Positions 9,101 to 24,538 are shown, numbered from the stretch's first letter. The stretch: 40,081 nucleotides of DNA from an uncultured Pirellulales bacterium (GCA_964582655.1 CAZOTP010000002.1:1-40081); one strand, 5' to 3'. The notes: generated by a model from the sequence alone, not told the origin. Program-made: numbers and translations.

Positions 9101-10161
9101 GCGTACACCTTTTCGATTTCTTCGAGAACCGCATCGGCAATCTCGACCGTCTTCTGTCTGCCTTTCTGCTGGGGCACTCCAACCCCCCGGGCGAGGGCGC
9201 TTTGGACCGCGGAACGGATCGCATCTGCGGCCGTGTTTTCTCCCAGCCATTCCAGCATCATCGCGGCGCTGAGAATCGCGGCGATGGGATTGGCAATTCC
9301 TTTTCCCGCGATATCCGGCGCGCTGCCATGGACCGGTTCGAACATCGAAGGAAAGACCCGGCCCGGATTCAGATTGGCGCTGGGGGCCAGCCCGATTCCC
9401 CCCGTGATGGCGCCGGCGAGGTCCGACAAAATATCCCCGAATAAATTCGACGCAACAACCACGTCAAACCCGGCGGGCTGAAGGGTAAAATTCATCGCCG
9501 CCGCATCCATGTGCTGCCGGTCCGCCTGCACCTGGGGATAATCCTTTCGTACCGACTCCAGCACATCATCCCAGAGCGTCATGCCATACCGCAGGGCGTT
9601 GGATTTGGTAATCAAAGTCAGATGGCCCCTTCGCTTCTTCGCCTGTTCGAACCCGAACCGCACGATTCGCTCGATGCCTTTTCGGGTGTGAATGGAAGTT
9701 TCGACGGCTACTTCCTCCGGCGAACCGGTCTTGAACCGCCCGCCGCAGGCGACGTATTCGCCCTCGGAATTTTCCCGCAGAATCAGGATATCCACCGGAC
9801 CGGGGCTGGCCAGCACCGACGCCACACCGTCATACAAACGGCAGGGACGATAACAGATGTACTGATCGAATCGCTGGCGAATTTGAACCAGCGGCGCCAG
9901 GGTGATATGATCGGGCAGACGGGACGGATATCCCAGCGCTCCCAGAAAAATCGCATCAAATTTCCGAAGCTGATCCAAAAAATCATCCGGCACAACCGCG
10001 CCGTGCCGATCGTAATAATCGCATCCCCATGGAACCGTTTCGCCGTCCAGACGAAACCCGCCGTCTTTTTTCTGAATTCGTTCCAGCACGCGAATCGCCT
10101 CTCGAATCACATCCACCCCGATGCCGTCCCCTGGATATATCGCGATTCGGTGCGTCTTCAT
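9097..10161 (-). CDS. Tartrate dehydrogenase/D-malate dehydrogenase (decarboxylating)/3-isopropylmalate dehydrogenase family
   Basis: MKTHRIAIYPGDGIGVDVIREAIRVLE... and NLFGDILSD are hallmarks of the isocitrate/isopropylmalate dehydrogenase family. About 354 aa from ATG 10159-10161, which overlaps the upstream stop (ATGA). Confidence 0.8.
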   Translation of the reverse strand: MKTHRIAIYPGDGIGVDVIREAIRVLERIQKKDGGFRLDGETVPWGCDYYDRHGAVVPDDFLDQLRKFDAIFLGALGYPSRLPDHITLAPLVQIRQRFDQYICYRPCRLYDGVASVLASPGPVDILILRENSEGEYVACGGRFKTGSPEEVAVETSIHTRKGIERIVRFGFEQAKKRRGHLTLITKSNALRYGMTLWDDVLESVRKDYPQVQADRQHMDAAAMNFTLQPAGFDVVVASNLFGDILSDLAGAITGGIGLAPSANLNPGRVFPSMFEPVHGSAPDIAGKGIANPIAAILSAAMMLEWLGENTAADAIRSAVQSALARGVGVPQQKGRQKTVEIADAVLEEIEKVYA

Positions 10162-10955
10162 GGCCGGTCCCCCTTCGCACGGACACTTTGCAGGACCTGC
10201 GGCCAGACGCGGCTCAAATCCATCACATCCCCGGCAAAAAACGCCAAGTCGCACCCCGCTTCCACCGCCGATTCCAACAGTTTGCCCGGCCGAACCAGTA
10301 TGCCGGCGTGTTTGCCCATCCGTTTTGCCGTGCGAATGCAATCCAGCGCCGTTTTTATTAAATCCAGATTGTCAAATTCCCCCGTGCATCCCAGCGCTGC
10401 GGAGAGATCGCCCGGCCCGATAAAAATCCCCGACAATCCTTCCACCGCGCAGATGGCCTCGACATTCGCCGCCGCCTGGCGAGTCTCTATCTGCGCGAAT
10501 ACATGGGTTCGGTCATTGGCCTTCGAAAACGCCGTTGTACAAGGCTCCAGCCCGAATTCCACGCCGCGGCTGCGGTTATTGAACCCCCGCTGTCCTAGAG
10601 GGGGAAATTTTCCCCATTCCACCATCTGCCTGGCCTGCTGGGCGGTATTGACCATCGGGACCACGACGATACCCGCCCCCACTTCCAGCGAACGGAGAAT
10701 ATATGTCCGCTGAAGCTCCGATACGCGGATCGTGGGGACCGCCCCGCCGGCCTGCGCCGCCAGGCAGAGCGACTCCGCCTCCCGAAACGTAGTCGAACAA
10801 TGTTCCATGTCGATCCATACCGTATCAAATCCCACGCGCCCCGCCAGTTCTGCCAGCATGGTCGAACCTGAATATAAAATCGCACCCCGCACCAGTCGCG
10901 GCTGCCCCTCTTGATTCACAAACAGATCGTTCTTCATGTTCATTTGATCCTGCAT
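10158..10955 (-). CDS. HpcH/HpaI-family class II (metal-dependent) 2-keto-3-deoxy-acid aldolase
   Basis: GFDTVWIDMEHC...VVPMVNTAQQARQMVEWGKFPPLGQRG is typical of HpcH/HpaI, YfaU and GarL-type aldolases. The start is chosen at ATG 10953-10955, which overlaps the GntR stop (TAATG) and gives 265 aa, the normal family size. The longer ORF in the track runs into the regulator gene. Confidence 0.8.
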   Translation of the reverse strand: MQDQMNMKNDLFVNQEGQPRLVRGAILYSGSTMLAELAGRVGFDTVWIDMEHCSTTFREAESLCLAAQAGGAVPTIRVSELQRTYILRSLEVGAGIVVVPMVNTAQQARQMVEWGKFPPLGQRGFNNRSRGVEFGLEPCTTAFSKANDRTHVFAQIETRQAAANVEAICAVEGLSGIFIGPGDLSAALGCTGEFDNLDLIKTALDCIRTAKRMGKHAGILVRPGKLLESAVEAGCDLAFFAGDVMDLSRVWPQVLQSVRAKGDRP

Positions 10956-11674
10956 TATACGGACAAGATCCATTTTGGAGCAAAGGTCCCCTCTTGAATC
11001 TGCTCCTCGATTCCTTCTCCCAGATTTCCGATATGATCCCGCATCAGCCGCTCCGCTTCTTCCTCCCGGCCCTCCTCGACGGCTTTCAACACCGCCAGGT
11101 GCTCCTGGAGAATCGCTTCCGCGCTTTTTTCCTGTCCCCGGATTATCTTCCCCAGCACCCAGAAATTCTCCGAAAGCCGCTGGAGCATCCGGTTGCCCGA
11201 AATCTCGATCAGCCTCTGATGAAACAGCCGATCCTGATAGGCCCACTCCTCCTGCCGATTTTCCTGCGAGAGGGCATAGATCGTCCTGGCATGATCCTCA
11301 AGCCGGCGGATTTGCTCTCTCGTGATTCGCCGGCAGCACAAACGTACCGCCAATCCCTCCAGCATCGCCCGGATCTGGATGGACTCCACAATCATCGCGC
11401 CATCCAGGGGACCGACAAAAACCCCCCGGTTGTCGTTGGTTTCCACCAGTCCGCCGATCTGAAGTTCCAGCAGGGCCTCCCGGATGACGCCCTGTGCCAC
11501 GCCGCATTTTTTCGCCAGTTCCTGCTGTCCCAGCCTCTGCCCCTGCCGGAATTTTCCCGACAGAATCATATCCTGAATCATCTGTCTGGCCCGATGCCGG
11601 GAGGGGATTCGGGTGCCGTTTTTGCCTTCTCCCGCTTTGACGGTTTTTTGGGGTGTTATGGTCTTGTTTGGCAT
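10955..11674 (-). CDS. GntR-family transcriptional regulator, FadR/FCD subfamily
   Basis: 239 aa with an N-terminal winged-HTH (QELAKKCGVAQGVIREALLELQIGGLVE) and a C-terminal helical FCD-like domain. It is the first gene of the operon. Confidence 0.9.
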   Translation of the reverse strand: MPNKTITPQKTVKAGEGKNGTRIPSRHRARQMIQDMILSGKFRQGQRLGQQELAKKCGVAQGVIREALLELQIGGLVETNDNRGVFVGPLDGAMIVESIQIRAMLEGLAVRLCCRRITREQIRRLEDHARTIYALSQENRQEEWAYQDRLFHQRLIEISGNRMLQRLSENFWVLGKIIRGQEKSAEAILQEHLAVLKAVEEGREEEAERLMRDHIGNLGEGIEEQIQEGTFAPKWILSV

Positions 11675-11677
11675 GGT

Positions 11678-11690
11678 CTATAAATTATAG
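11678..11690. promoter_or_regulatory. Perfect 6-1-6 palindrome CTATAA-a-TTATAG (candidate GntR operator)
   Basis: Read directly from the sequence. It lies 4 nt upstream of the regulator ATG and contains the candidate -10 box. The core TATAAATTAT recurs as a direct repeat 20 bp away (11679-11688 and 11699-11708). Confidence 0.4.
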
Positions 11691-11711
11691 ATAATTTTTA
11701 TAAATTATCAA
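11684..11711 (-). promoter_or_regulatory. Sigma70-like promoter TTGATA-N16-TATAAT for the GntR-headed operon
   Basis: On the minus strand the sequence reads TTGATAatttataaaaattatcTATAATttatagaccATG. The -10 box ends 9 nt before the ATG, which implies a leaderless or near-leaderless transcript. Confidence 0.4.
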
Positions 11712-11830
11712 TAATAATATGAACCGTGTTGGAAATTGCCGGTCTCGACCCGTTAAAAAAGATGTTACTCCTTATTAGACATGAAGTTGTGATATTATAG
11801 ATATTTTCCAGGACGGGGATGGGATACCTG

Positions 11831-11859
11831 AAAAATAACGGCATTCGATTCCCGAATGC
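11831..11859 (-). terminator. Rho-independent terminator ending the transketolase operon
   Basis: On the minus strand the sequence reads GCATTCG-ggaat-CGAATGC followed by CGTTATTTTT. It lies 30 nt downstream of the isomerase stop (11889). Confidence 0.55.
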
Positions 11860-11888
11860 GGATGAAAACCGAAAACCGAGGCCCTCCG

Positions 11889-13295
11889 CTATCGATCATA
11901 GTCGTAGAATTCGATATTCAGCAGATTCGTTAAATGTTGCAATTCCGCCTTGAGATTCCCTTCGACGGCAAGGATATGATTGGAGCCGAAGGTTTGCAGG
12001 AAGCGGGTTTTGTCGATCTGGACTTGGGCGAAGATGAGGGGCCTGACCAGGAGGGGAGACTGAGGCGGAAGCTGTTCCTGGACGGTTTTTCCGGTTATGA
12101 CACCCAAGGCATACCGGTCTTGCTGACGGAAGAGGCGGGCGAAGGTCATTTCGCGGCCTGGGGGGACGATGAATTGCGTGGAACCGCCTCCGGCCTGTCC
12201 GAAATTGTGGGGACCGAGGGTCAGAGATGCGAGATTTTCCTGCGGATTTTGGGAGAGGCGGGTGAAATAGGTGGCCATGGCGCCGCAGTTGGCGAGGGTG
12301 AGGCGGTTTTCGGTTACCTGCACCAAATCGTTTAGGGAGGTCGGTTTTCCGCCACTGAGGAGTTTTAGAATCTGCATCGTGAGGGCACCGTCGGCGTCGG
12401 CTTCGCAACTGCAGCAGATGGGCTCCTTGAGGCCTTCGGCATCATAGGGATCGTTGCAGAGAGAAACGGCCAGGCACTGGAGACAATAGTGGTTGCTCAT
12501 TTCGGTCTGGCATTTGACGCCGAGGAAATCCAGTTCATGCGCCCGGATGATTTCCTTGAGAGCGAGGTAGGAGCGAATCTGTCTTTCCAGGTGTTTCGAA
12601 GTGAACGTGGTTTCGTTGAATCGGAGAGCGCCGGTGTTTTGGGAAATCCAGTCGATATGCCGGCGGACCAGCGGTTCGGTCTGGTTTTCCGCCCGGAACA
12701 CGATTTCATACTGATCGATGTGTTCGATGTCCACCGCGAAGGTGCGCTGCCAGAGGGACAGGTCGGCGGTACCGGTGCTGATTCCCAGGGAGCGGCCTCC
12801 GAGGCCGCCGAAGGTCTGGCCCCGCAACTGCTGTTTTGCGGCGGCGGCGCGGAGGAAGTGAATCAGGCTGGAGCGGTGCGGCTCGACGACGGCGTCGCCG
12901 GGGACCCGAAAGCAGGGCGTTCCGATCTGCTGCATAGCACCGCTGACCGCCAGGAACGCCAACTGGCTGATGGAATCCGGGGCTTCGTTGCAGGCCAGGG
13001 CGATGGGGACGGGAATCAGGTTGGCGGTGTGGGCGACGACAGCGGGGGCAACGAAAATGCCGACGTAGAGGATGACCGCATCCACGCGGGCGGCTTGCAG
13101 CTCGGCGACGGCCTGAAGGGCCTGCTTTTTTCCGCGAATTTCCCGCGCGGCGGGCCAAACGATTTCGACCTCGTTGCCCAAAGCGGCGGCAAAACGGTTC
13201 ACTTCGCGGTCGCAAACAGGTTTTCGTTTTTGATAGACATCTTCGCGAGCCAGCGATTCGCTGAATACCAGCAATCCCACTTTCGGACGAATCAT
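11889..13295 (-). CDS. L-fucose/L-arabinose isomerase-family sugar isomerase
   Basis: About 468 aa from ATG 13293-13295 (MIRPKVGLLVFSESLAREDVY...), which overlaps the upstream stop (ATGA). The layout and size match the fucose-isomerase-like family. The family call is by resemblance. Confidence 0.65.
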   Translation of the reverse strand: MIRPKVGLLVFSESLAREDVYQKRKPVCDREVNRFAAALGNEVEIVWPAAREIRGKKQALQAVAELQAARVDAVILYVGIFVAPAVVAHTANLIPVPIALACNEAPDSISQLAFLAVSGAMQQIGTPCFRVPGDAVVEPHRSSLIHFLRAAAAKQQLRGQTFGGLGGRSLGISTGTADLSLWQRTFAVDIEHIDQYEIVFRAENQTEPLVRRHIDWISQNTGALRFNETTFTSKHLERQIRSYLALKEIIRAHELDFLGVKCQTEMSNHYCLQCLAVSLCNDPYDAEGLKEPICCSCEADADGALTMQILKLLSGGKPTSLNDLVQVTENRLTLANCGAMATYFTRLSQNPQENLASLTLGPHNFGQAGGGSTQFIVPPGREMTFARLFRQQDRYALGVITGKTVQEQLPPQSPLLVRPLIFAQVQIDKTRFLQTFGSNHILAVEGNLKAELQHLTNLLNIEFYDYDR

Positions 13296-14182
13296 GACTG
13301 CACCTCCTGCAGAGATTTTGGAATCAGGGGCCCAATAGAGCGAACGGGGGAGCAGCAGATCGGCTGACACAATCCCCTTGCGCTTAAAATGGCTTTCACT
13401 TTCATGACGGGATTGACTTCCGGGCCAAATTCGTTCCAGACGCAGAGCATGCGCTGCTGGAGCTCTTTTGCCTTTTGAGTATCGCCGGTTCCGACGGCGC
13501 GGATCATCTCTTTGCATATATTCGGCTCGACGTTGGTGTAGGACATGACCAGGCCGTCGGCGCCCAGTTCCAGTGCCTGAAAGGCCGTCCGCATTTCGCC
13601 GTTCATGACGCTCAGATCGCCCAGTTCCTGCCTGATTTCGATCAGTTTTTGAATATAGCCCAGGTCACCGGAGCTGTCTTTGATGCCAAGAATCCGTTTC
13701 TTTTGCCGCAGGATTCGCACGACATCGAGGGGGATGGCGACGCCATCGGTTTTGACGGGGAAGTTATAGAGAATCAGGGGTTTTTCCGTGGCGTCGTAAA
13801 TTGCCTGAACGTGGTCGATCATTTCGGGGGGATTTTTGAGCCAGTGGAAGATGGGCATCATGACGACGAGGGCATCGACCTGCTGCCTCGCGGCGCGTCT
13901 GGCCCAGAGGACGGCGCGGCGTGTGGCGGTTTCGGCGACTCCGACGAAGACGGGAAGACCGGGATTGAGCTCCAGGACGGCATCCAGGAGTCTGTCTCTG
14001 GCGGAATCCGTCAGGCAGGGTCCTTCGCCGCAGCTCCCCAGAAGGAACAGGGCGTCCGTTCCGTTTTCGCGCTGGAAGGAAATTAACTGCTGGAGAGGTT
14101 TGACATCCACCTCTTCATCCGCATTCAAGGGAGTAATCAGAGGAACCACGGAACCGCGCAATGAAAATGACTGTTTCGACAT
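13292..14182 (-). CDS. DHDPS/N-acetylneuraminate-lyase-family class I aldolase (or 2-keto-3-deoxy-acid dehydratase)
   Basis: 296 aa with the family motifs GSCGEG, LYNFP and the Schiff-base lysine motif GIKDSSG. Confidence 0.85.
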   Translation of the reverse strand: MSKQSFSLRGSVVPLITPLNADEEVDVKPLQQLISFQRENGTDALFLLGSCGEGPCLTDSARDRLLDAVLELNPGLPVFVGVAETATRRAVLWARRAARQQVDALVVMMPIFHWLKNPPEMIDHVQAIYDATEKPLILYNFPVKTDGVAIPLDVVRILRQKKRILGIKDSSGDLGYIQKLIEIRQELGDLSVMNGEMRTAFQALELGADGLVMSYTNVEPNICKEMIRAVGTGDTQKAKELQQRMLCVWNEFGPEVNPVMKVKAILSARGLCQPICCSPVRSIGPLIPKSLQEVQS

Positions 14183-14184
14183 AT

Positions 14185-15135
14185 TTACCTTTTCTGTTTT
14201 TGCTGGAGGACTTCTTCAACAGCGGTGATAATGGCTTCGGGTGAAAGACCGTAATGGCGCTGCAGCTCTGCATAGCTTCCGGACTGGCCAAACTGATCGG
14301 GAATAGCGATTATTCGCATTGGAATCGGGCAGGTTTCCGCCAAAAAACGGCTGATATAGGAGCCCATTCCGCCATATACGCTATGTTCTTCGCAGGTGAC
14401 CATACAGCGGCATTCCCGGGCAGCGGATAATATCACGTTTCCATCGAGAGGTTTGATCGTGTGAAGATCGATGAGGCGGACGGAGATTCCTTTTTGGGTC
14501 AACTGTTCCGCTGCTTGGCGAACTCTGTCAAAGATATGGCCGGTGGAGACCAGGGCCACATCGTTTCCGGGCTGTCGGATAAGGGCTTTTCCGATTTGGA
14601 AGGGAAGCGGATAATCCAGGCGGTTTACTTCAGCGCGGGATAAGCGGAGAAAAACCGGTCCGTCGTGTTCGAGGGCGGCCTCCAGCGCCAGTTCGGTTTC
14701 CGTCGCGTCCGCCGGACAGATCACGGTCATATTCGGCATGGAGAGGAAGAAGGATAGATCTTCGACGGATTGGTGGCTGCCGCCATCGGCGAAATCGCTC
14801 AGTCCCGCATAGCCGCCGGCGAAAATCACGGGGAGGCGGCTGTAGGCGATCTGGCTTCGGACCTGATCGGATGCGCGGGTGGCCAGCAGAAAAGCGAAGG
14901 CAGAGACCAGCGGTCTCATCCCAGCGGCGGCGAGACCGGCAGCGACCGAGACCATGTTGGCTTCCGCGATGCCGCAGTTGAGGAAGCGGTCGGGAAATGC
15001 CGTCTGGAACAGCCTGGTTTGCGTCGAAGAGGAGGTGTCGGCATCGAGCACGACTAAATCTTTGTGCTTTTGGCCCATTCGAACCAGATGTTCGCCAAAG
15101 ACGCGGCGCATGGGAGATGGCTGTTCGGTCGTCAT
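14185..15135 (-). CDS. Transketolase, C-terminal (Pyr plus C-terminal domain) subunit
   Basis: MTTEQPSPMRRVFGEHLV...FLNCGIAEANMVSVAAGLA is typical of the B subunit of split transketolases. ATG 15133-15135 overlaps the upstream stop (ATGA). Confidence 0.9.
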   Translation of the reverse strand: MTTEQPSPMRRVFGEHLVRMGQKHKDLVVLDADTSSSTQTRLFQTAFPDRFLNCGIAEANMVSVAAGLAAAGMRPLVSAFAFLLATRASDQVRSQIAYSRLPVIFAGGYAGLSDFADGGSHQSVEDLSFFLSMPNMTVICPADATETELALEAALEHDGPVFLRLSRAEVNRLDYPLPFQIGKALIRQPGNDVALVSTGHIFDRVRQAAEQLTQKGISVRLIDLHTIKPLDGNVILSAARECRCMVTCEEHSVYGGMGSYISRFLAETCPIPMRIIAIPDQFGQSGSYAELQRHYGLSPEAIITAVEEVLQQKQKR

Positions 15136-15959
15136 GGAGTTGGCTCCAGGTCTTTCATCGCGGTCTGATATTCTTTCTCGGAAAGGGGCGCTCCGTGCCA
15201 GACGTGATTGCCTTCCATGAAGGAGACGCCTTTTCCTTTTACGGTGCGGGCGAGAACGGCGACAGGACCTTTTGCCTGCATCGCCTCCTGCAGGGCCTGA
15301 TACACGGACCGGCAATCATGACCGTCGCAGGAAAGAGCGGCCCAGCCAAAGGCGTGGAATTTATCCGCCAGATTTCCCAGAGGTATGATATCGTTGGTGG
15401 CGCCATCGAGCTGGATGCTGTTCCAGTCCACAATGACAACCAGATTCGGGAGGTTGAGTTTTGCCGCGAGCATGGCGGCTTCCCAGTTTTGACCTTCGTC
15501 GAGTTCGCCATCGCCCGTCAGGACGAAGACCCGCCATGGTTCCCGGCGATGTCTTGCGGCCCAGGCCATGCCGATGCCGTTGGAGATTCCCATTCCCAGC
15601 GAGCCGGTGGATATTTCGACGCCGGGTACCTTCCGCATATCGGGATGGCCCTGGAGGGGGCTGCCGAATTGACGCAGGGTCTGAAGCTGATGGGCGGGGA
15701 AAAACCCTCTCTTAGCCAGGATGGCATACAGGCTCGGCGCCGCGTGTCCCTTGGATAAGACCAAGCGGTCGCGCTGGGGCCAGTCGGGGTGATAGGGGCG
15801 GAGATTCAAAATTGCCCGGTACAAGACGACGAGAATTTCCGCACAGGAGAGCGACCCGCCGCAATGCCCGGATCCGGCGCGATAGGCCATCTCAATTACG
15901 GTGCGGCGCAGCTCCTGCGCCTCCCGCCGCCAAAGCTCAAAATCATTCTGATCCGGCAT
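15132..15959 (-). CDS. Transketolase, N-terminal (ThDP/PP-domain) subunit
   Basis: GHCGGSLSCAEILVVLY and the ThDP-Mg motif GDGELDEGQNWEA are present. The start is ATG 15957-15959, 2 nt after the upstream stop. Confidence 0.9.
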   Translation of the reverse strand: MPDQNDFELWRREAQELRRTVIEMAYRAGSGHCGGSLSCAEILVVLYRAILNLRPYHPDWPQRDRLVLSKGHAAPSLYAILAKRGFFPAHQLQTLRQFGSPLQGHPDMRKVPGVEISTGSLGMGISNGIGMAWAARHRREPWRVFVLTGDGELDEGQNWEAAMLAAKLNLPNLVVIVDWNSIQLDGATNDIIPLGNLADKFHAFGWAALSCDGHDCRSVYQALQEAMQAKGPVAVLARTVKGKGVSFMEGNHVWHGAPLSEKEYQTAMKDLEPTP

Positions 15960-15961
15960 CG

Positions 15962-17035
15962 TCAATACTCCTTCCTGACAATCAGGCACAATCCTTCCGG
16001 CCGGAGGCGATTCAGGAGCATCTGAATCTGGTGTTCCGTTTTCAGGTTCATGATAATGACGGCTTTGCCGGCCCGCTGAATCCGCTGAAAGGGTTCGACC
16101 ATATCCTCCAGAGACGGGCCTGTCGGATCCAAAGCCCATTCAATCGCCGCCAGTTCCCGGATTTCCAATAGAGCGTCCAGGTGCTGAACGGCGGAGGAGT
16201 GAAAATGAATCGTAACCGTATCAAAAGCACAGGCGATTTTGCGGTAAGAGGGAACCAAGAGGTTCTGAAAATGTGCCGGGGACAGGATATTGGCGATATC
16301 GGCCTGAGTGACGATGTTTCGTCCGGGTCCCCAGATCCGATATCGATTGATCGAACCGCCATGAAAGGGCGGCAGGACCTCAAATTGAGCCTGGTATAAT
16401 TGAATGACGCAATCCGTCAGCCAGTCGGACATGGCTTATACCACCGCCCCCTTAGCATACAGCCCCAGCCAGACTCTTTCCGCGCCGATCAGGGCTTCGA
16501 GGCAATCCGCCGGTCCTCGCAGGAGAGTTTCGCTGATGAGATATTCCCCCGCCGAGGCATCCACGTTTTTTCGTGTCGCTTCGGCGAGCTTGTCCCGCCA
16601 GAGAGCGTTCAGACCGGCCATCAGTTGATCCAGGTTTTCCCGAACCTTTTCACCCGGCTTGGTCCAGACGGTTTGTGCCCGGCTGGAGAGATACACATTC
16701 GCACCGGTATAACCCTCGCTCCAGGGAATGGGTTCCAGGGGCATTTTCGCGGGGAACAGATCATCGCCCGGCAGAACCGCCGGACGAACTTGCGTATCGG
16801 CCGTGATGACGCGTTCGGTGATATCGGATGCGGCAAAAGGGCCTTCATGCTGAATCCGTAAATTCTGGAGCGGAAACAGGCGGCTCATCGGAGCGCAGCC
16901 GATGAGAGGAGTGCTGCCGGATTTGCGCCGCCAGAACGACGCATGATGAGCAAGAAGGTTTTCCTGTCGCGATGGATCCAGAGAAGTCAGCCAACTCGAT
17001 TCCGGAAAGACAGGGATGGGTCTGTTTGAAATCAT
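15962..17035 (-). pseudogene. URO-D-fold (uroporphyrinogen decarboxylase/MtaA-like) protein interrupted by a single in-frame TAA (16436-16438); alternatively a naturally split two-piece gene
   Basis: ORFs 16436..17035 (199 aa) and 15962..16432 (156 aa) are in the same frame. They are separated only by TAA-GCC-ATG (...KGAVV*AMSDWLTD...). Together they give about 356 aa, the normal URO-D-family length. The break falls in what looks like one continuous domain. Confidence 0.5.
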
Positions 17036-17045
17036 AAATTCCTCA

Positions 17046-18728
17046 TCAGCCGTTTGCCAGCCAGCCGGCCAGCCAGGTTACGCTTCCGATCAGCAGAAGC
17101 ACCACGAGGATCAGCAGGACAAACCCATACCATGCGTGTTTTCGGGTTTCGCGAAAATCGATCTTTCGAATGGCGGCGTCATAATCAAAGTCCTGATCGG
17201 CTTCGGGGGGCAACTCATATGTGCCGGTTCCCGGAATCTCACGGAATCCGACTTTATGCAGGATTTCCTCCTGACCGATGGGCGTTTTCAGGAGCAGATA
17301 AAACCGGTCCAGCCGATGTTTCGGTTCGGGGGGCGTGAGCAAACTGACGATAATTCCGGCCGCAATCCCCGCCGCGATATACAGCGTGACGGTTTTCGGC
17401 AACCCGGGATCACCCTGCCATTCCATGTGGAACTGAGCGAACACCACCGCGCCGACGGCGGCAAAAAACGCGGCGAACATGCCGTACCGGTTGGACCGCC
17501 GCCACAGAATCGCGAAGAAAAACGGAATCCCCATCAGGGGAATTGTCTGGAACAGGAATCGGATGGCTTTGGTGGTATCGTCGAAGAGATAGGAACAGGA
17601 TATGGACGCAACGGCAAAGACTACGGAGGACAAGCGGCTGACCAGAAGATACCGTTTTTCGGAGACATCCGGGCGGATGAATTTTTTATAGATGTTATTG
17701 GAGAACACGCCGGCAAAACAGAGCATCTGGACAGCGCAGTTATCCATCATGGACGCCATCACGCACGCCAGCATGAGCCCCACACATCCCGCCGGCAGCA
17801 GATCCTGGGAGATGGTCCCGAAAATATGGTCCGGTTTCAGTGTTCCCGCTCCATAGAGCGCCATCGCCATCACGCCGGTCAGGGCCCAGGGGATGGTGAT
17901 GAGCCGTTTGAGGAGCAGGCCTCCGACAAAACCGATCCGGCTGTCCATTTCGGTTTTTGCCGAAGCGGTATTGGACATGATATGGGGCTGGGTAACCATG
18001 CTGATCAGCGACGCCATGGTCACCATGACAATCCAGTACAGCGTCATATCCTGCGAGAGTACCAGCCGGAAGGTTTCCTGGGGATTTTCCAGTCCCGCCT
18101 GAAAGCCGTTCAGCCCGCCGATCCGATGCCAGAAAAAGGGGATAATGAGAATCGACATGACAATGGTGAGAATGCCCTGGAGAAAATCGTTCCACACGGC
18201 GGCGATCAGTCCTCCGGCGGCGCCGTAAAAGAAAGAAATCGATCCCAGAATCACAAGGATATATTGCCATGAAATCGTGTGGTCCATCAGGGCCTCCAGG
18301 AGCCGGCTGGAGGCATAGAGCATGATGCTGGTCGAGACCAGACTGTAGAACATGGAAAAGAGGGAATACAGCGCCATGAATTCCGTGCCGAACCTGCGCT
18401 CGAAGAAATCGGCGGTGGTGAGCACTCGCGCCCGCCGATAAATCGGCGCCAGGAGCCAATAGACGGGCAGGGTAAAGACCATGACCCACTGGTACCAGAT
18501 TCCGGCGAATCCCACTTTATACGACTGGGCGGCAACCCCCACCGCGTTATCCGCGTGGGTCCCTGCGCCAAAGGAAAACAGGATCATCATCGCCTTGCCG
18601 AAGCGGCGGCCCCCCATGAGAAAATCCTCGCGGTTGCGGATAAAATACGTGGCCGCCACGCCGATTCCCGCAATCACGAGGAAATACAGCAAAATCACAA
18701 GGCCATCAAGAATCGTTAATCCGAACAT
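17046..18728 (-). CDS. Sodium:solute symporter (SSS) family transporter with a C-terminal extension
   Basis: 560 aa. The N-terminus MFGLTILDGLVILLYFLVIAGIGVAATYF... is SSS-like. After the core comes a roughly 70-aa hydrophilic segment and one extra C-terminal TM helix. Confidence 0.85.
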   Translation of the reverse strand: MFGLTILDGLVILLYFLVIAGIGVAATYFIRNREDFLMGGRRFGKAMMILFSFGAGTHADNAVGVAAQSYKVGFAGIWYQWVMVFTLPVYWLLAPIYRRARVLTTADFFERRFGTEFMALYSLFSMFYSLVSTSIMLYASSRLLEALMDHTISWQYILVILGSISFFYGAAGGLIAAVWNDFLQGILTIVMSILIIPFFWHRIGGLNGFQAGLENPQETFRLVLSQDMTLYWIVMVTMASLISMVTQPHIMSNTASAKTEMDSRIGFVGGLLLKRLITIPWALTGVMAMALYGAGTLKPDHIFGTISQDLLPAGCVGLMLACVMASMMDNCAVQMLCFAGVFSNNIYKKFIRPDVSEKRYLLVSRLSSVVFAVASISCSYLFDDTTKAIRFLFQTIPLMGIPFFFAILWRRSNRYGMFAAFFAAVGAVVFAQFHMEWQGDPGLPKTVTLYIAAGIAAGIIVSLLTPPEPKHRLDRFYLLLKTPIGQEEILHKVGFREIPGTGTYELPPEADQDFDYDAAIRKIDFRETRKHAWYGFVLLILVVLLLIGSVTWLAGWLANG

Positions 18729-18764
18729 AGTTTGTTCTCGATAAACGAAGGCGGAATTGGAATC

Positions 18765-19487
18765 TTATTCCTGTTTGTTCCGCATGGTTTTCAGTTCCTG
18801 GGCTAATTCCTCGGGCGTCAGTTTCTGGATATGCTGACGGATCGCCTTTTCCGCCTCCTCGGGATTGCGGTTTTTGAGAGCGTCCAAAATGGGCTGGTGA
18901 CTTCGGCCGAAGACCGATTCGATGGGCCGCAGCGCGTGAAACAGAAGGTCCATCAATTCACTTTGCTCTTTGTAGCAGTAATTCTGCTGCATAATCGGTT
19001 CAAACATGTCCGCCAGCAGCGTATTGCCGCAGCGGCTTACGATATAACGATGAAAAACGACATCGGCGTCCTTGTATCGAGAACGGTCCTCCTCTTGATC
19101 CGCCAGGATCAGTTCCTGATGGATATCCGCCAGTTCGGACAATTCCTGATCCCGGATGCGGGATGCCAGAAGACGAACGGCTTCCACTTCCAGCGCCCGC
19201 CGGACTTCGAAAAGCTGACTCAAATCATTCTGACTGGAATAATCCTTGATGTAAACGCCGGAAGGTCTGTTGCGATGCACGGCCCAGCCTTTCTGCACGA
19301 GTTTTTCCAGGGCTTCCCGCACCGGCGCCTGACTGATGCGCAACTGCCTGGCCAGATCCCGCTGCACCAGTCGCATCCCGGAGCAAAATTTCCCGTCCCG
19401 GATATTGCCAACCACATAGTCATAAACCTGATCGGTCAGTCTGCATTCCATAACCGATTCATCCGAAAGGCGAATCGAACTATTCAT
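18765..19487 (-). CDS. GntR-family transcriptional regulator, FadR/FCD subfamily (second copy)
   Basis: 240 aa with a wHTH (RDLARQLRISQAPVREALEKLVQKGW) and an FCD-like C-terminal domain. It is the first gene of the operon. Confidence 0.9.
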   Translation of the reverse strand: MNSSIRLSDESVMECRLTDQVYDYVVGNIRDGKFCSGMRLVQRDLARQLRISQAPVREALEKLVQKGWAVHRNRPSGVYIKDYSSQNDLSQLFEVRRALEVEAVRLLASRIRDQELSELADIHQELILADQEEDRSRYKDADVVFHRYIVSRCGNTLLADMFEPIMQQNYCYKEQSELMDLLFHALRPIESVFGRSHQPILDALKNRNPEEAEKAIRQHIQKLTPEELAQELKTMRNKQE

Positions 19488-19552
19488 AAATCTCTTATTT
19501 ACAAAGGTTAGTGATTTTTAATTCATGAAACATATTACTATGATCTATCTTC

Positions 19553-19591
19553 TGATCGATCATATGATAGACCAATAATTTTAACTGTCAA
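19553..19591 (-). promoter_or_regulatory. Sigma70-like promoter TTGACA-N16-TATCAT plus the 10-bp palindrome TGATCGATCA at the predicted start site
   Basis: On the minus strand the sequence reads TTGACAgttaaaattattggtcTATCATaTGATCGATCAgaagatag. The -35 is at 19586-19591, the -10 at 19564-19569 and the palindrome at 19553-19562. The leader to the GntR ATG is about 70 nt. Confidence 0.4.
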
Positions 19592-19646: not shown

Positions 19647-20987
19647 TCAAGAATTCGATATCGAGGGAATTCCGTAGGGACCGTCGGGCAGAAGCAGAAG
19701 AGAAGCGCGGGGATTTTCCCGAAGGAGCTTGTCGAGGGCAAGTTGGGTGATTCGCTGCGTGAAGGAGCTGTCGGATTCGCCGGAATTTGGGGAGTGGAGG
19801 GTGGCGGCGTTGGTTTCGGGAATGGTTTTATCGCGCAGACGAGCGGCGCAGGTCATGAGATTTTTTGCGGTGCCTAGTTTTTGGAAGACTTTGGCCCACA
19901 TCTGCACCTGCCACTGTTCGGGAACGAAGGTCCAGCCGGGATCGCGGATCGCGCGGCGGAATTCCTGAGGAGTCATCTGCTGAAGGAGCGGGAGGATTTG
20001 TTTGTATCCCGCCCCACCGATGGGGTCCGGGTCGGTCAGATCGGCGGTGAGAAGGATATGGCCGTTTGGGCAGGCCGCACGACAGGCTTCGTAAGCGGCT
20101 TTGGCGCACTGGTAGTGGTTCACGCCCACATCGCCGGCCTGGGTGAGGACGATGTCGAACTCATGAGGAATTGGGATTCGCACAAAATCACGGATTTGAT
20201 CGATGGCGGCGCGGTGGGCCTGTTCCAGCGAACCGGCGAAGATGCCGGCGAGTTTTTTTTCAGAGTTAATGGTGACATTGACGGTAAAATCGACGCCGGC
20301 CATTTTTGCGATAGCGAGGGATTCTTCATGGCAGGGATTGCCTTCCAAGACAAGCGTGTCGGCGCGGGGGTGGTCGAGGATTTCGGCGGAATGGAAACCC
20401 CATGTGACGGACTGGCCGCAGATGCCGGGGCAGAGGGCTTTTCGGCCTCCGGAGTAGCCGGCCATGAAATGCGGCTCGACCAGGCTGGTGAGGATTTTCA
20501 GATCGGCCTGGCCATAAAATCGATTGATCGCAACCGTCGGATTGCGGGAGGTGCTTCCCAGGGTTATCAGCATGTCGGGATCGTCGGCGATGTGGTTGAG
20601 AATCTCGATGCCGGGGCGGAATGCCGAATCACCGAGCATGCGTCGAAGCTCCTCCTGGGACATGGCGCGATGCGTGCCGCAGGCGATAAGGATGCGGATT
20701 TGAGCGATGCCGCTTTGCCGGAGAATATCCAGGAGTGGAGCAAGAATGCCGTCCGGTTCTTTGTAGGGGACGGGCCGGGTGTTGTCGGAGACCACAATGA
20801 CGGCGGAACAACGTCCGGCGGCGAGCGCGGACAAGGGGGGAGAATCGACGGGATGGTTCAAGGCTTGATGCAATGTTTCCGCGGGATATTCCAGTGGGGG
20901 CATGGGGGACAATCGCAGAATCTGCGCCGAATCGGGGATTTGAAGAGTGAATTCTGATTTGCCATAAGGCCAGGAAATTCTTTTCAT
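19647..20987 (-). CDS. larA: LarA-family nickel-pincer-nucleotide (NPN)-dependent 2-hydroxyacid racemase/epimerase homolog
   Basis: 446 aa from ATG 20985-20987 (AAGGAA lies 5 nt upstream; the track start at 21005 is TTG). It carries VSDNTRP, CGTHR (His106) and PHFMAGYSGGRK...FH, giving His173, Lys183 and His199. This reproduces the H-x9-K-x15-H spacing of the catalytic His, the NPN-tethering Lys and the Ni-ligand His of L. plantarum LarA (His108/His174/Lys184/His200). Confidence 0.85.
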   Translation of the reverse strand: MKRISWPYGKSEFTLQIPDSAQILRLSPMPPLEYPAETLHQALNHPVDSPPLSALAAGRCSAVIVVSDNTRPVPYKEPDGILAPLLDILRQSGIAQIRILIACGTHRAMSQEELRRMLGDSAFRPGIEILNHIADDPDMLITLGSTSRNPTVAINRFYGQADLKILTSLVEPHFMAGYSGGRKALCPGICGQSVTWGFHSAEILDHPRADTLVLEGNPCHEESLAIAKMAGVDFTVNVTINSEKKLAGIFAGSLEQAHRAAIDQIRDFVRIPIPHEFDIVLTQAGDVGVNHYQCAKAAYEACRAACPNGHILLTADLTDPDPIGGAGYKQILPLLQQMTPQEFRRAIRDPGWTFVPEQWQVQMWAKVFQKLGTAKNLMTCAARLRDKTIPETNAATLHSPNSGESDSSFTQRITQLALDKLLRENPRASLLLLPDGPYGIPSISNS

Positions 20988-21009
20988 ACCGATTCCTTCA
21001 AGCAAGCGG

Positions 21010-22566
21010 TCAGGAGAACCAAGTTTGCAGTTGGCTGTAGAGGGACCAGACCCCAGTGATTAAAAATCCGCCGAAGGAAAACCAGAGCAGCACATCCCAG
21101 ATTCGGGCCGGCGTGAGCGGCTGGAGGGTTTTTCGATAGCGGAAATACAAGGCCGCAATTCCCAGCATCGGGAGCATGATCGCCTGGGCGACGCCGCTGG
21201 CGAGGACCATGGCGACGGGTGCCTGAACGAAAATATACGCCACGACAGCAACGAGGGGCCAGACGGCGCTGATCCAGCGGGTCCATCGCTGCCGGGTGCG
21301 CTCCGATTTGTCATGGAGGCCGAACAATCCCAGGCCGTCGGCGACCATTCGGGAATTGCCCGCCGCAGCGACAAAAAACGTGGAATAGAGCACGGCGAAG
21401 GCGCCGAAAAGAAAGACGCCGTCGGACCATTTCCCGAATACGGGAACGTACATCTCTTTGAGGGTACGAATCATATCCGTCTGCTGGGGATTCAGACGGG
21501 CGCGGCCCAGCACGGCGGCGCCGAGCCAATAAAACGCGACGGTGACAAAGGTATAAACGGCCATGGAGGCAAAGGCGTCGATGTGCAGGATTCGCAGCCA
21601 GCCTTTGGCTCGCGCCAGCCAGTCAGGGCTATCCTGGCGCGGGCCGGTGAAGCGGGCGTATCCTTTTTCCAGGCACCAGTAGGGATACATAATCAATTCC
21701 GCAGCTCCCACGCCGATGATGCCGAAGGCACCGAAGGCGGTGGCGATGGGATTGATGGAACTGTCCGGAAGCCTCGGCGGAAGCTGAAACCGCAATCCCT
21801 GAACGAGTTCTGAAGGTTGAATCGCCCATTCGGGTTTGGTTTGCAGGAGCAGCACGGTAAGAACGGTTACGACCGTGAAACCTGCCACGAGAATGGTAGA
21901 GACCGTTTGAATGAGGGTGTAGCGGCCGATATAGAGCAACACCGAAGTGGCGGCGGCGATGAGAACCGCCCAGAGGTAGGGATCGCGAGGTTCCTGGGAA
22001 GAACCATTTCGGACGGCGAGATCGGCGATTTTTTTCTGCCAGACGGGAATGTCCGAGGAATCGGGCCGTTGGGTCCGGAGCAAAGCAAGCTGGACTTTCG
22101 CCTGAATCAGATCGTTTTGCCTGTGGTTGTATTCCTTCCCTTCCTGCGTCAGGGGCCAAGTCATGGCCAAGGTCTGCCCCACCCCGCCGACAATTCCCCC
22201 CTGCTGAGTAATCACCAGCACCGTCATTGCGGCCCAGTACCACAGCAGCCAATTCACTTTCCATCGCGGCCCCGGCAGAGTATTGAGCGCCTCCAGCGGG
22301 GTCTGCGACCAGATAAGGGTATGCCGCCCAAATTCCACCTGCACAAAAACTTTAATGACGCAGCCCAGGACCATGAGCCAGAGCAGCCAGAAACCCGCTT
22401 CGGCTCCCACCTTGGTGGTGGCGATTAATTCCCCGGAGCCAACAATGGAACCGGCGATAATCATGCCTGGACCGAGGCTGAGAAGGATTTGCCCCAGCGA
22501 GCGGGGCGGCGGATGAGGCGACGACTTGTCCATAACCAACGTTCTCCGCGGTCCGGGCGAACACAT
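21010..22566 (-). CDS. Nramp-fold (MntH-like) transporter lacking the canonical DPGN and MPH metal-site motifs
   Basis: LGPGMIIAGSIVGSGELIATTKVGAEAGFWLLW aligns with MntH TM1 ([32 protein letters not shown]), but DPGN is replaced by GSGE. The TM6 region reads GVGAAELIMYPYW instead of GATIMPHVIYLHS. The start may be ATG 22566 or ATG 22533. Confidence 0.7.
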   Translation of the reverse strand: MCSPGPRRTLVMDKSSPHPPPRSLGQILLSLGPGMIIAGSIVGSGELIATTKVGAEAGFWLLWLMVLGCVIKVFVQVEFGRHTLIWSQTPLEALNTLPGPRWKVNWLLWYWAAMTVLVITQQGGIVGGVGQTLAMTWPLTQEGKEYNHRQNDLIQAKVQLALLRTQRPDSSDIPVWQKKIADLAVRNGSSQEPRDPYLWAVLIAAATSVLLYIGRYTLIQTVSTILVAGFTVVTVLTVLLLQTKPEWAIQPSELVQGLRFQLPPRLPDSSINPIATAFGAFGIIGVGAAELIMYPYWCLEKGYARFTGPRQDSPDWLARAKGWLRILHIDAFASMAVYTFVTVAFYWLGAAVLGRARLNPQQTDMIRTLKEMYVPVFGKWSDGVFLFGAFAVLYSTFFVAAAGNSRMVADGLGLFGLHDKSERTRQRWTRWISAVWPLVAVVAYIFVQAPVAMVLASGVAQAIMLPMLGIAALYFRYRKTLQPLTPARIWDVLLWFSFGGFLITGVWSLYSQLQTWFS

Positions 22567-22801: not shown

Positions 22802-24538
22802 ATGAACGCGACGGAGCGGACAATTCGAAACCGAATTAATCAGGAGAGGGAGCGGCAGCGGAATACGGCGGCGGAGACTCTGCTGGATTGGATTGAAGAA
22901 GGGCAGATCGTGCGGGCCCGGGGGAATCTGATGTTTCACACCGAACCGGAGAAGCTGGACGGGAAACTTCAAAAGCTTCTGCATCGTCTTTTGGAGAATC
23001 CGGAGCGTCTTTCCCGGAATCATCAGCAGCATCTGCTGCGGTTTTTGACCGACCTTGCGGCGGATCTGAAGAGCTTCGTCCCTCACTGGGTATTGAGTCC
23101 GCCTTTGACGGAGGACAATCTTCACCGGATGTTCCTGGCAGTGACTGAAGTGCTGAAACACCTTCTGCCCGTGTGCCGCGAGGCGGCGGCGGAAGTGACC
23201 AGGCAGATTCGGCGGAACACCCTCGCCCGCTTGCAGGCGGAAGGGATCGAGGATGCCTTTCGCGCGGCGGCTTTGACGGAAGAGCTTCTGGGCCATTCTC
23301 TTCTGGATTACATCCGCAATCTGACCGGGGAAATTCAACGGAGCAATTTTCTGAAGGCCTCCCTGGCCCGTAAAAACGGGATCTGCGCCACGGAGCTGGG
23401 AAACGATTACGCCGTTTTCCTGCCGTATGTTCTTCGGCTGGGCGGTTCGTTTGTGACGACCAATCCGGTGCTGATCCCGCTGGCGTGGGAGATCGAGCCG
23501 GAATACTGGAATCCCAGGGTGGATGAGCTGATCCGTTCCGGCTACCGCCGCGAGGAACTGCTGGACATTCAGAAAGATCCGCAAAAACGGGAGACCGCCG
23601 TTGTCGAAATCAATTCGCTGGTGACCATGGCAGTGGTGGAAGACAACTGCCGCCTTCTGCGGGATCTCTTTCTGGTCACCGAAGGCCGGGAAGGATATGT
23701 CAGCCTCCAGGTCAGTCCGAAGAACCACGATCAAACGGACCGGATGGTTTCGGAGGTGATGTCGCTGTATGGGCATCTGGAGCGGCGGCTGGGAGGCGTT
23801 CCCAACGCGGTCTTCAAGCTGCCGGCGACGGCGGCGGGACTGGCGGCGGCGGAGCAGATTACCGCAAAAGGAATCGGGGTTACGATTACCGTTCAGTTCG
23901 GAGTGTTTCAGGCAGCCGAGTTTGCGAAGGTTTTGCAGCGGGGCCATGCCCTGGTATGTTATCTGGCGCTGATGAACGGCCGCATGGCGTTCCCGGTGCG
24001 GGATGAAATGAAGGAAAAACAGGTTTCAGGCGGCGTGGAGGCGGCGCGCTGGGCGGGTGTCGAAGTTGCGCGAAAAGCGTTCCGGAATTTGTACGATGCT
24101 CCCGCACAGGGGGGGCTGGGGATCGATCGCGAAAAAGTGAAACTTCTGATCGCTTCGCTGCGGATTTACGATGACTGGCTGCCCGACATTTCAGAGCTGT
24201 GGGGCTGCCCAGTGATTACGGTGTTTCCCAATGTCCGGCGGGCCTATGATTCGCACCCTCGCGATTTTGACGGGCAGGCGGTGCGGGAGGTTACGCCGGC
24301 GGAGGAGATAAACACCCTGCTGGAAAGCGAAATTTTTCGACAGGCATGGTGGGCACCCGGAGATTCGCCGCGTTCCCGACCGCATCGGCCGCTGAGCCTG
24401 GAACCAAACGATTGTGACGCTGTTTTGCAATGGCCTCCTGTCGCCCAGACGCTTGGGCAGTTTATTTCGCTGTATGACAAAATGGGTGAGATGGTCAAGG
24501 CCCGAGTCCAGGCGCTGGCTGTCGTCGGAAAGGAGTGA
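22802..24538 (+). CDS. Oversized transaldolase-fold (class I aldolase) protein, atypical active site
   Basis: 578 aa. The core carries SFVTTNP (N221), GYVSLQVS (Q303), VFKLPATAAG (K339) and GVTITVQFG (T363). These align with E. coli TalB TTNP(N35), GRISTEVD(E96), KLAST(K132) and LTLLFS(T156). The Q303-K339 spacing (36) and K339-T363 spacing (24) are identical to TalB. There is an additional roughly 190-aa helical N-terminal extension and a roughly 130-aa C-terminal extension. Confidence 0.7.
   Translation: MNATERTIRNRINQERERQRNTAAETLLDWIEEGQIVRARGNLMFHTEPEKLDGKLQKLLHRLLENPERLSRNHQQHLLRFLTDLAADLKSFVPHWVLSPPLTEDNLHRMFLAVTEVLKHLLPVCREAAAEVTRQIRRNTLARLQAEGIEDAFRAAALTEELLGHSLLDYIRNLTGEIQRSNFLKASLARKNGICATELGNDYAVFLPYVLRLGGSFVTTNPVLIPLAWEIEPEYWNPRVDELIRSGYRREELLDIQKDPQKRETAVVEINSLVTMAVVEDNCRLLRDLFLVTEGREGYVSLQVSPKNHDQTDRMVSEVMSLYGHLERRLGGVPNAVFKLPATAAGLAAAEQITAKGIGVTITVQFGVFQAAEFAKVLQRGHALVCYLALMNGRMAFPVRDEMKEKQVSGGVEAARWAGVEVARKAFRNLYDAPAQGGLGIDREKVKLLIASLRIYDDWLPDISELWGCPVITVFPNVRRAYDSHPRDFDGQAVREVTPAEEINTLLESEIFRQAWWAPGDSPRSRPHRPLSLEPNDCDAVLQWPPVAQTLGQFISLYDKMGEMVKARVQALAVVGKE

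Follow-up and report, generated by a model that had tools for sequence, protein, structure and literature searches.

The 40,081-nucleotide stretch of an uncultured Pirellulales bacterium analyzed here (GCA_964582655.1 CAZOTP010000002.1:1-40081, hereafter the window) carries on its minus strand, from position 19487 to position 11889, a seven-gene operon built around a split transketolase. The genes encode, in order, a GntR/FCD regulator, a sodium:solute symporter (SSS), a protein with the fold of the URO-D superfamily (URODl), the N-terminal and C-terminal subunits of a transketolase (TK-N and TK-C, or TKN and TKC in gene orders), a class I aldolase of the DHDPS/NAL family (DHDPS) and an aldose-ketose isomerase of the FucI family (ISO). 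The explanation that we favor, with about even confidence, is that this operon would serve the kinase-independent use of an acidic, likely carboxylated sugar that is never phosphorylated, in a manner similar to the sulfo-transketolase (sulfo-TK) pathway. The combination of a transketolase with a Schiff-base aldolase and a URO-D-fold enzyme is conserved, and no description of it was found in the searchable literature, in agreement with an earlier note on this DNA that knew of no such pathway; nor was a description found of a transketolase route for 6-deoxy sugars.

The order of the seven genes under one GntR/FCD regulator was obtained from the listing of open reading frames (ORFs) and from Pfam and NCBIfam scans, and is the one given by the earlier note. 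Gene spacing was read from the gene calls on a JGI metagenome contig that is 99.85% identical to the window (L001; the other related loci are numbered likewise). On this contig, the intergenic gaps measure 36, 10, 2, and 2 nt, and 4-nt overlaps join TK-N to TK-C and DHDPS to ISO, so that the tight packing described earlier, with gaps of 36 nt at most and two overlaps, is confirmed. The closing terminator was likewise recovered, as a terminator-like hairpin followed by a T-run. The regulator combines an N-terminal winged helix-turn-helix with a C-terminal FCD domain, which places it in the FadR/FCD subfamily of the GntR family, and it scores below every NCBIfam equivalog cut-off. Upstream of its gene, overlapping palindromes cover the -10 hexamer of a sigma-70-like promoter, and their 19-mer occurs a single time within the window (chance expectation 0.01). 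This region is a candidate GntR operator, and its position over the -10 region together with the uniqueness of the 19-mer fits an autoregulated GntR-type unit. A search of the window with the operator motif returned no second site, and no regulon is definable from the window. The view of a compact, regulator-headed catabolic unit around a split transketolase is thus supported (Table 1).

Table 1. Features of the operon and two genes associated with it in related loci (positions in the window).
Feature	Position	Strand	Remarks
Sigma-70-like promoter, TTGACA-16-TATCAT	19564-19591	-	11 of 12 consensus matches; 77 nt upstream of the regulator ATG
Overlapping palindromes, including the perfect 10-mer TGATCGATCA	19541-19574		Covering the -10 hexamer and the bases right after it; candidate GntR operator
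GntR/FCD transcriptional regulator	18765-19487	-	240-aa ORF (228 aa as called on L001); PF00392 2e-12, PF07729 1e-25
Sodium:solute symporter (SSS), 560 aa	17046-18728	-	PF00474 2e-35
URO-D-fold protein (URODl), 357 codons	15962-17035	-	In-frame TAA in the window assembly
Transketolase N-terminal subunit (TK-N, thiamine diphosphate-binding), 275 aa	15132-15959	-	PF00456 3e-57
Transketolase C-terminal subunit (TK-C, Pyr and C domains), 316 aa	14185-15135	-	PF02779, PF02780; GGY-AGLSDFADG signature; 4-nt overlap with TK-N
DHDPS/NAL-family class I (Schiff-base) aldolase, 296 aa	13292-14182	-	PF00701 7e-48
FucI-family aldose-ketose isomerase, 468 aa	11889-13295	-	PF02952, PF07881, PF07882; 4-nt overlap with the DHDPS gene
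Terminator-like hairpin, 8-bp stem and T-run (TTATTTTT)	11841-11859	-	30 nt past the last stop codon
LarA-family homologue (nickel-pincer nucleotide-dependent 2-hydroxyacid racemase/epimerase)	19647-21005	-	Immediately upstream of the operon; association only
Fe-dependent alcohol dehydrogenase (Fe-ADH)	24535-25812	+	About 5 kb from the module, in another operon; link by association only

The proteins of the window were then mapped onto every fetched related locus. In this neighborhood search, of the kind proposed in the earlier note, the module was recovered, with a varied gene order, from about 12 independent loci belonging to Phycisphaerae, Victivallis vadensis, and Acidobacteriota or to metagenomes. 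The complete arrangement GntR-SSS-URODl-TKN-TKC-DHDPS-ISO is found in the window and in L001, and its last five genes stand in the same order in L004 and L009 (Victivallis) and in L021. The two subunits of the transketolase follow URODl-DHDPS-ISO after two intervening genes in L003 and L006 (Phycisphaerae), and are separated from DHDPS by an FAD oxidoreductase in L020 (URODl-TKN-TKC-FAD oxidoreductase-DHDPS). Shorter versions consist of GntR-URODl-TKN-TKC-ISO, with no aldolase (L012 and L013), of URODl-DHDPS-ISO (L005 and L016-L018, a second URO-D paralogue coming next in L005 and L018), or of URODl-DHDPS (L008). Among the 11 informative loci, URODl adjoins the DHDPS gene in nine, the isomerase gene in eight and TK-N/TK-C in six. 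Such recurrent linkage, in about 12 independent loci of several phyla, shows that the arrangement reflects more than chance.

It is therefore barely credible that there is no pathway at all and that a housekeeping transketolase and a DapA merely lie beside unrelated genes. Such a reading could draw on dapA being the best NCBIfam match of the aldolase and on the retention of all catalytic residues in the transketolase, but the dapA score falls below its cut-off, a tyrosine of the catalytic triad is replaced (Tyr107 to Phe), and the transketolase belongs to a clade without the conserved phosphate-binding His. Moreover, the genes are translationally coupled under one regulator, and members of several phyla share the set, variously ordered.

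Other genes accompany the module. Orthologues of the Fe-ADH of the window (61% identical) adjoin URODl in L005 and the isomerase gene in L010 and L011, and a LarA-like gene flanks the module in two loci, the window and L005; both enzymes are possibly linked to the pathway. Glycosidases (GH20, GH123, GH42, and GH78) and sulfatases are encoded near the module in several loci. A PF12831 FAD-dependent oxidoreductase lies beside it in three (L004 13484-14445; L007 8504-9973; L020 3926-5284, the last between TK-C and the aldolase). In L005, a fusion of a Kelch/NANM domain (sialic-acid mutarotase-like) with an SSS transporter is encoded at 9645-12212, two genes downstream of the isomerase and past the URO-D paralogue, with a sulfatase gene next to it.

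No sugar-kinase domain was detected in any main ORF of the 40-kb window or near the module in the gene calls of the related loci. Hence, the absence of a kinase from the operon and its neighbors, as stated earlier, stands. The absence is less of an anomaly than the earlier note implied, since the described sulfo-TK pathway is also kinase-free (PMC9594981; PMC12890257). The latter comprises SqvD, a FucI-family isomerase (PF02952), the transketolase SqwGH, the RpiB-family SqwI and the Fe-ADH SqwF (PMC9594981; PMC12890257; PMC11659671). SqwGH is a two-subunit transketolase that transfers the ketol unit onto glyceraldehyde-3-phosphate, giving xylulose-5-phosphate (PMC9594981; PMC12890257). Because glyceraldehyde-3-phosphate accepts the ketol in sulfo-TK, a transketolase operon without a kinase is not paradoxical. 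The split transketolase of the operon, compared with SqwGH by description, has its catalytic residues intact.

The transketolase was compared in more detail by aligning six module-linked orthologues with the Carboxydothermus hydrogenoformans and human enzymes (human numbering). Among solved structures, TK-C is closest to that of the split enzyme of C. hydrogenoformans (6yaj, E 1e-72) and next closest to human transketolase. With the domains PF00456, PF02779, and PF02780 and the equivalents of Glu366 and Asp424, the pair is a bona fide thiamine diphosphate (ThDP) transketolase. The cofactor-activating Glu366, Asp424, which reads the C3/C4 hydroxyls, the His481-type histidine and the Arg318/Ser345/Arg474 trio are kept in all six TK-C sequences, and all six carry His416 to Tyr and Phe392 to Leu replacements. 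The phosphate pocket to which the earlier note had drawn attention is thus retained in its Arg/Ser/Arg part but has lost its His, leaving the canonical pentose-phosphate set Arg318/Ser345/His416/Arg474 incomplete. The retained part is compatible with glyceraldehyde-3-phosphate as a possible acceptor.

The tyrosine belongs to a GGY-(A)GLSD(F)ADG motif that is present in 119 of the 120 best TK-C homologs (P0301-P0420, 49–98% identity). The enzyme is therefore not a one-off. The Lachnospiraceae transketolase of L014, encoded beside a 48%-identical isomerase, shows the same Tyr and Leu changes. A Paenibacillaceae member of the clade (L027/L028) is part of a kinase-free cluster of LacI, RpiB, a xylose-isomerase-like TIM barrel, TKN, TKC, a TIM barrel and a 2-hydroxyacid dehydrogenase. 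The GGY-type split transketolases thus form a large, possibly catabolic clade, whose members are repeatedly found in kinase-free catabolic clusters together with isomerases (FucI-like, RpiB, and xylose-isomerase-like TIM barrels). Given this recurrence, the transketolase of the operon is unlikely to be a plain pentose-phosphate enzyme.

Several observations bear on the nature of the substrate. FCD-type GntR regulators typically sense carboxylates, and Arg138 of DapA binds the carboxylate of aspartate semialdehyde. In the aldolase of the operon (PF00701, 163 bits), the Schiff-base lysine lies in ILGIKDSSGD and aligns with the catalytic Lys of DapA. Compared with DapA (triad Tyr133/Thr44/Tyr107; Arg138), the enzyme has Phe for Tyr107, Cys for Thr45 and Lys for Arg138, and all module aldolases carry a Lys, mostly Lys-Lys, at the Arg138 position. 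The enzyme does not qualify as DapA (TIGR00674, 176.2 bits against a cut-off of 206.15), although this is its best NCBIfam match, nor as NanA (NF003164 and TIGR00683, 105.9 bits against 281 and 93.3 against 382). It also appears to lack the sugar-binding Asp-Glu motif of NanA, as we take the E. coli sequence to read, and has NGEMR or NGELR instead.

These features of the aldolase affect the standing of a route for ulosonic acids (Kdo, Kdn, sialic-acid-like acids or Dha), which we consider unlikely. In this route, the aldolase would act first and release pyruvate and an aldose, the isomerase would convert the aldose to a ketose to be harvested by the transketolase, and URODl would trim or epimerize the sugar, for instance by deacetylation or 3-epimerization. 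The membership of the aldolase in the NAL/DHDPS family, the NANM-SSS fusion shortly after the module in L005 and the glycosidases (GH20, GH123, GH42, and GH78) and sulfatases near several loci speak for it, as does the fact that FucI-family enzymes are the classical D-arabinose isomerases. However, the aldolase scores below both NanA cut-offs and seemingly lacks the NanA motif, its Lys-Lys entrance suggests an acidic rather than a neutral aldehyde, and in L012 and L013 the aldolase is missing while URODl, the transketolase and the isomerase are retained. In addition, Kdo would lead by way of D-arabinose to D-ribulose, whose configuration at C3 is wrong for a donor of transketolase.

The isomerase is equally distinct from its characterized relatives. 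It contains the FucI family domains and is only remotely related to FucI itself (E 4e-4; FucI equivalog 36.9 bits against a cut-off of 775). E298, D323, and H440, which fit the Glu/Asp/His manganese ligands of FucI, are invariant in its family together with several Arg and Lys residues. Relatives with 47–55% identity occur in an Anaerotruncus operon with TctABC transporters, an HpcH aldolase and a 2-hydroxyacid dehydrogenase. In Lachnospiraceae, a relative is found with a TRAP transporter, a split transketolase and RpiB, and others stand with sugar-acid dehydratases, a LarA-like protein and an aldehyde dehydrogenase (ALDH).

The best NCBIfam match of the isomerase, the sulfoquinovose isomerase SftI (NF048012), raises the question of a true sulfo-TK variant acting on sulfoquinovose or another sulfonated or sulfated sugar, in which the leftover C2 sulfonate would be reduced by the Fe-ADH and exported. 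The coexistence of a split transketolase and an Fe-ADH without a kinase, as in sulfo-TK, the retained anion pocket of the transketolase and the frequency of sulfatases among the neighbors would agree with such a variant. Yet the SftI match reaches 55.4 bits against a cut-off of 700, and the main ORFs of the window include no sulfoquinovosidase (YihQ), SqvB (PF16161), RpiB-type SqwI (PF02502) or sulfonate exporter. The Fe-ADH of the window scores 104.6 bits against 700 with the SarD model (SqwF family PF00465), and orthologues of it adjoin the module elsewhere. As neither the aldolase nor URODl would have a role in it, and as relatives of the isomerase accompany TctABC tricarboxylate-type transporters, we hold this variant to be quite improbable.

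A neutral 6-deoxyhexose such as L-fucose is, in our estimation, a more improbable substrate still. The isomerase would form fuculose, URODl would epimerize it at C3 to 6-deoxy-L-sorbose, and two rounds of transketolase would yield two xylulose-5-phosphate and acetaldehyde or lactaldehyde, to be reduced by the Fe-ADH. This would suit the FucI-family isomerase, the SGLT-like transporter, the association of the Fe-ADH with the module, the GH78/rhamnosidase-like genes that follow the isomerase in L004 and L021 and the hosts, which are polysaccharide degraders of the PVC group. It would leave unexplained, however, an alpha-keto-acid aldolase with basic entrance residues, the GntR/FCD regulator and the carboxylate transporters beside the isomerase relatives; besides, the isomerase is remote from FucI and the epimerase role of URODl is pure conjecture.

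A carboxylated sugar is favored instead because the isomerase relatives stand beside carboxylate transporters and the aldolases have a Lys at the Arg138 position. The GntR/FCD regulator, the TctABC and TRAP contexts, the Arg/Ser/Arg pocket of the transketolase and the LarA-like gene flanking the module in two loci add to this support. By association, then, the substrate or the ketose derived from it probably carries a carboxylate. It had previously been guessed that the ketose would bear an anionic group of its own, and for a carboxylate this guess now has indirect support from the regulator, the isomerase contexts, the aldolase Lys and the transketolase pocket.

The gene of the URO-D-fold protein was present where the earlier note had placed it, but its reading frame is interrupted in the window assembly by an in-frame TAA at 16438-16436, which divides it into ORFs of 199 and 156 aa. 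The stop lies in a 37-bp patch (16438-16474) with 11 substitutions relative to L001 and L002, all 11 of which are transversions and one of which creates the TAA, whereas the remaining 16 kb show just 14 scattered differences. Because the patch is missing from these two near-identical contigs, which encode an uninterrupted URODl of 357 aa, and because all 28 database homologs are full length, the stop and its patch are probably an assembly or sequencing artefact; a very recent pseudogenization is less probable. Recoding of the stop (selenocysteine, pyrrolysine or an alternative genetic code) was considered and rejected, given that the codon is TAA, that the all-transversion patch is absent from L001 and L002 and that the 28 homologs are uninterrupted.

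URODl is rare at close range. Only 28 homologs with at least 48% identity were found among 5.8 billion proteins, four loci in 185,579 species genomes (two Phycisphaerae, one Solibacteraceae and Victivallis vadensis) and seven in 241 million metagenome records. Neither ORF half of the window gene has a Pfam match, and a 76%-identical homolog (P0001) barely reaches PF01208 (24.0 bits, cut-off 23.9). The "URO-D fold" label is borne out by structure rather than by sequence. Indeed, the AlphaFold2 model computed from the family alignment (pLDDT 93.1, pTM 0.90) matches human UROD, an MtaA-type methyltransferase of Methanosarcina mazei and MetE in the PDB according to Foldseek (E 6e-9 to 9e-5, TM about 0.6, 12–14% identity), while the family sequence profile returned only noise from the PDB, with no solved structure detectable by profile.

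An exhaustive profile search showed that URODl is one subfamily of a wider family with 1,691 cluster representatives at E ≤ 1e-3. Weak PF01208 matches occur in 26 of 31 sampled members, and every name checked is "hypothetical protein." Across this family, little or no variation is seen at His278-x-His280-Ser, Asp247, Asp304, Arg174-Gly-Pro-x-Asp178, and two Trp, and in the predicted structure a barrel strand ends at the His-x-His. Judging from these motifs, URODl would be a metal-dependent TIM-barrel enzyme with a putative metal site. Two other URO-D-family proteins of the loci examined carry His-Ser-Cys or His-Cys-Cys at the corresponding motif. The second URO-D-like paralogue found directly after the isomerase in L005 (8512-9633) and L018 (3562-4683) is highly divergent, has 373 aa and the His-Cys-Cys motif, and these loci show no transketolase nearby. 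Its profile comparison with URODl in L005 gave a probability of 4%, too weak to map the metal motif. The contexts of two distant family members (L023 and L024) held no pointers to a role. A function as corrinoid-dependent O-demethylase of the MtaA kind was rejected, no corrinoid protein being encoded in any related locus and a literature search having found nothing.

Under the favored explanation, we infer the order of the steps, the acceptor, the carboxylated substrate and the URODl reaction as follows. The SSS transporter would import the substrate, and the Mn-type FucI-family isomerase would convert an aldose-type aldehyde to a 2-ketose. The split ThDP transketolase would then transfer the C1-C2 ketol onto glyceraldehyde-3-phosphate and make xylulose-5-phosphate, so that carbon would reach the pentose-phosphate pathway at no cost in ATP and with no kinase involved. 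What remains of the molecule would be an acidic aldehyde, to be disposed of by the Fe-ADH, probably through reduction, or by an ALDH. Candidate conversions include that of a uronate to fructuronate or 5-keto-gluconate and that of tartronate semialdehyde to hydroxypyruvate. The class I DHDPS-type aldolase would join or leave the route by cleaving a 2-keto-3-deoxy acid to pyruvate and an acidic aldehyde. URODl, tightly coupled to the aldolase, would supply a step for which the operon has no recognizable enzyme, most plausibly the dehydration, decarboxylation or epimerization of a sugar acid. A linear version could employ every gene. In this version, URODl as a dehydratase would turn a sugar acid into a keto-deoxy acid, the aldolase would split the latter into pyruvate and tartronate semialdehyde, the isomerase would produce hydroxypyruvate, and the transketolase would combine it with glyceraldehyde-3-phosphate to give xylulose-5-phosphate and CO2. 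The scheme is complete in its chemistry, and the part given to URODl in it is conjectural.

Some observations weigh against this explanation. The transporter is closer to the neutral-sugar carriers SGLT1/vSGLT, its nearest solved structures (E about 1e-20), than to the sialic-acid carrier SiaT (4e-8). The Tyr signature, being common to the entire transketolase clade, does not identify the substrate. The parts assigned to the aldolase and URODl are provisional: the aldolase is absent from L012 and L013, and no transketolase lies near the module in L005 and L016-L018. Finally, the neighboring operon with ALDH and tartrate dehydrogenase genes is separately regulated and is not conserved beside the module elsewhere. 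The stronger statement, namely that this is a natural transketolase pathway with a carboxylated, never-phosphorylated ketose donor (a keto-uronate, 5-keto-gluconate or hydroxypyruvate) and that URODl is the first of a new class of sugar-acid enzymes dependent on a metal (dehydratase, decarboxylase or epimerase), is offered tentatively, as possible rather than probable.

This neighboring operon (11674-959, minus strand) is a second GntR/FCD-headed, kinase-free unit with its own regulator and SSS transporter. Its genes encode, in order, the GntR/FCD regulator, an HpcH aldolase, a tartrate dehydrogenase (TIGR02089, 473.8 bits against a cut-off of 470.4), an SSADH-like ALDH, a glyoxylate/hydroxypyruvate-reductase-like dehydrogenase, a ManD/GalD-like (MR/MLE) dehydratase, an FG-GAP-repeat protein, a 530-aa protein without Pfam match and the second SSS transporter. 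Homologs of the HpcH and 530-aa proteins are also found near URODl in L007, L008, and L012, and the position of the operon beside the module is suggestive of a link only. On the other side (19647-22566, minus strand), the LarA homologue immediately upstream of the operon, which is below all equivalog cut-offs, is accompanied by an Nramp-like membrane protein. Further on, an operon of the plus strand (22802-32590) encodes an unusually long transaldolase-like protein (578 aa), the Fe-ADH, a UxaE-like epimerase (582 aa), an SDR, a TRAP transporter (DctP/Q/M) and a 439-aa URO-D-family protein whose His-Ser-Cys motif is MtaA-like. For an acidic sugar, this operon might do with a transaldolase what the other would do with a transketolase. 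The window also encodes an SNF2-family helicase (32909-35335), an HIT protein (37290-37823) and a nucleotidyltransferase (MNT) and HepT-like RNase pair (38188-38954) typical of toxin-antitoxin modules.

If the favored explanation is correct, the logic of sulfo-TK, in which a C2 ketol is placed on glyceraldehyde-3-phosphate instead of ATP being spent by a kinase, would extend beyond sulfoquinovose to a wider range of acidic sugars, those consumed by Planctomycetota, Lentisphaerota, and Verrucomicrobiota that degrade polysaccharides and by some Firmicutes. A physiological role would be given to the large split-transketolase clade with Tyr in place of the phosphate-binding His, and a first functional foothold to an uncharacterized branch of the URO-D superfamily. 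Should a carboxylated ketose prove to be the natural donor, sugar acids would enter the pentose-phosphate pathway without any investment of ATP. The family to which URODl belongs, and within which it would found its class, spans about 1,700 sequence clusters. Besides, transketolases that naturally accept carboxylated ketoses are wanted for the biocatalysis of tartrate and rare sugars.

Among known systems, members of the URO-D superfamily (UROD, MtaA/MtbA, and MetE) share the TIM-barrel fold with URODl (Foldseek E about 1e-8), and its His-x-His resembles the zinc-binding His-x-Cys of MtaA in a match judged by eye rather than by structural alignment. Identity is limited to 12–14%, however, and URODl belongs to a carbohydrate operon with neither a corrinoid protein nor haem-pathway genes nearby. 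Pairs of a dehydratase and a DHDPS-type aldolase (YjhG/YjhH and YagF/YagE of E. coli; the KDG aldolase of Sulfolobus) are similar in that a class I aldolase is tightly linked to one partner under a sugar-acid-type regulator and that a kinase-free route leads to pyruvate and an aldehyde. They include no isomerase or transketolase, and the partner in the operon has a URO-D fold and is not an IlvD or enolase-superfamily dehydratase; that it acts as a dehydratase is conjecture. The D-apiose pathway, in which Carter et al. reportedly described in 2018 the apulose-4-phosphate transketolase AptA/AptB, provides, by description only, another catabolic split transketolase making xylulose-5-phosphate. 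There, however, a dedicated kinase phosphorylates apulose, whereas the window and the related loci have none.

The closest chemistry for a distal carboxylate is that of 5-keto-D-gluconate, which a transketolase cleaves to tartaric semialdehyde, the latter being oxidized to tartrate by an SSADH-type dehydrogenase (PMC12016104). This cleavage has been proposed in grapevine and Gluconobacter and was engineered in E. coli TktA R358I/H461S/R520Q (PMC12016104; PMC7970118). Mutating the phosphate pocket of TktA, including His461, improves it (PMC12016104). The equivalent of His461 is likewise altered in the operon, to Tyr, and the operon next door has genes for an SSADH-like ALDH and a tartrate dehydrogenase. 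Unlike in the engineered enzyme, both pocket arginines are kept, and the known chemistry is biosynthetic or engineered rather than that of a described bacterial catabolic operon. The sulfo-TK pathway of Clostridium sp. MSTE9 is comparable in its PF02952 isomerase, its two-subunit ThDP transketolase, its Fe-ADH in the neighborhood and its lack of a kinase. The distal group of its substrate is anionic, as proposed here. The operon differs in that its isomerase is not an SftI/SqvD equivalog, in that its aldolase and URO-D-fold enzyme have no counterpart in sulfo-TK and in that its regulator and the contexts of its relatives point to a carboxylate, not a sulfonate. The gene combination is thus conserved, rare and without a description that we could find, and its working principle has a clear precedent in sulfo-TK.

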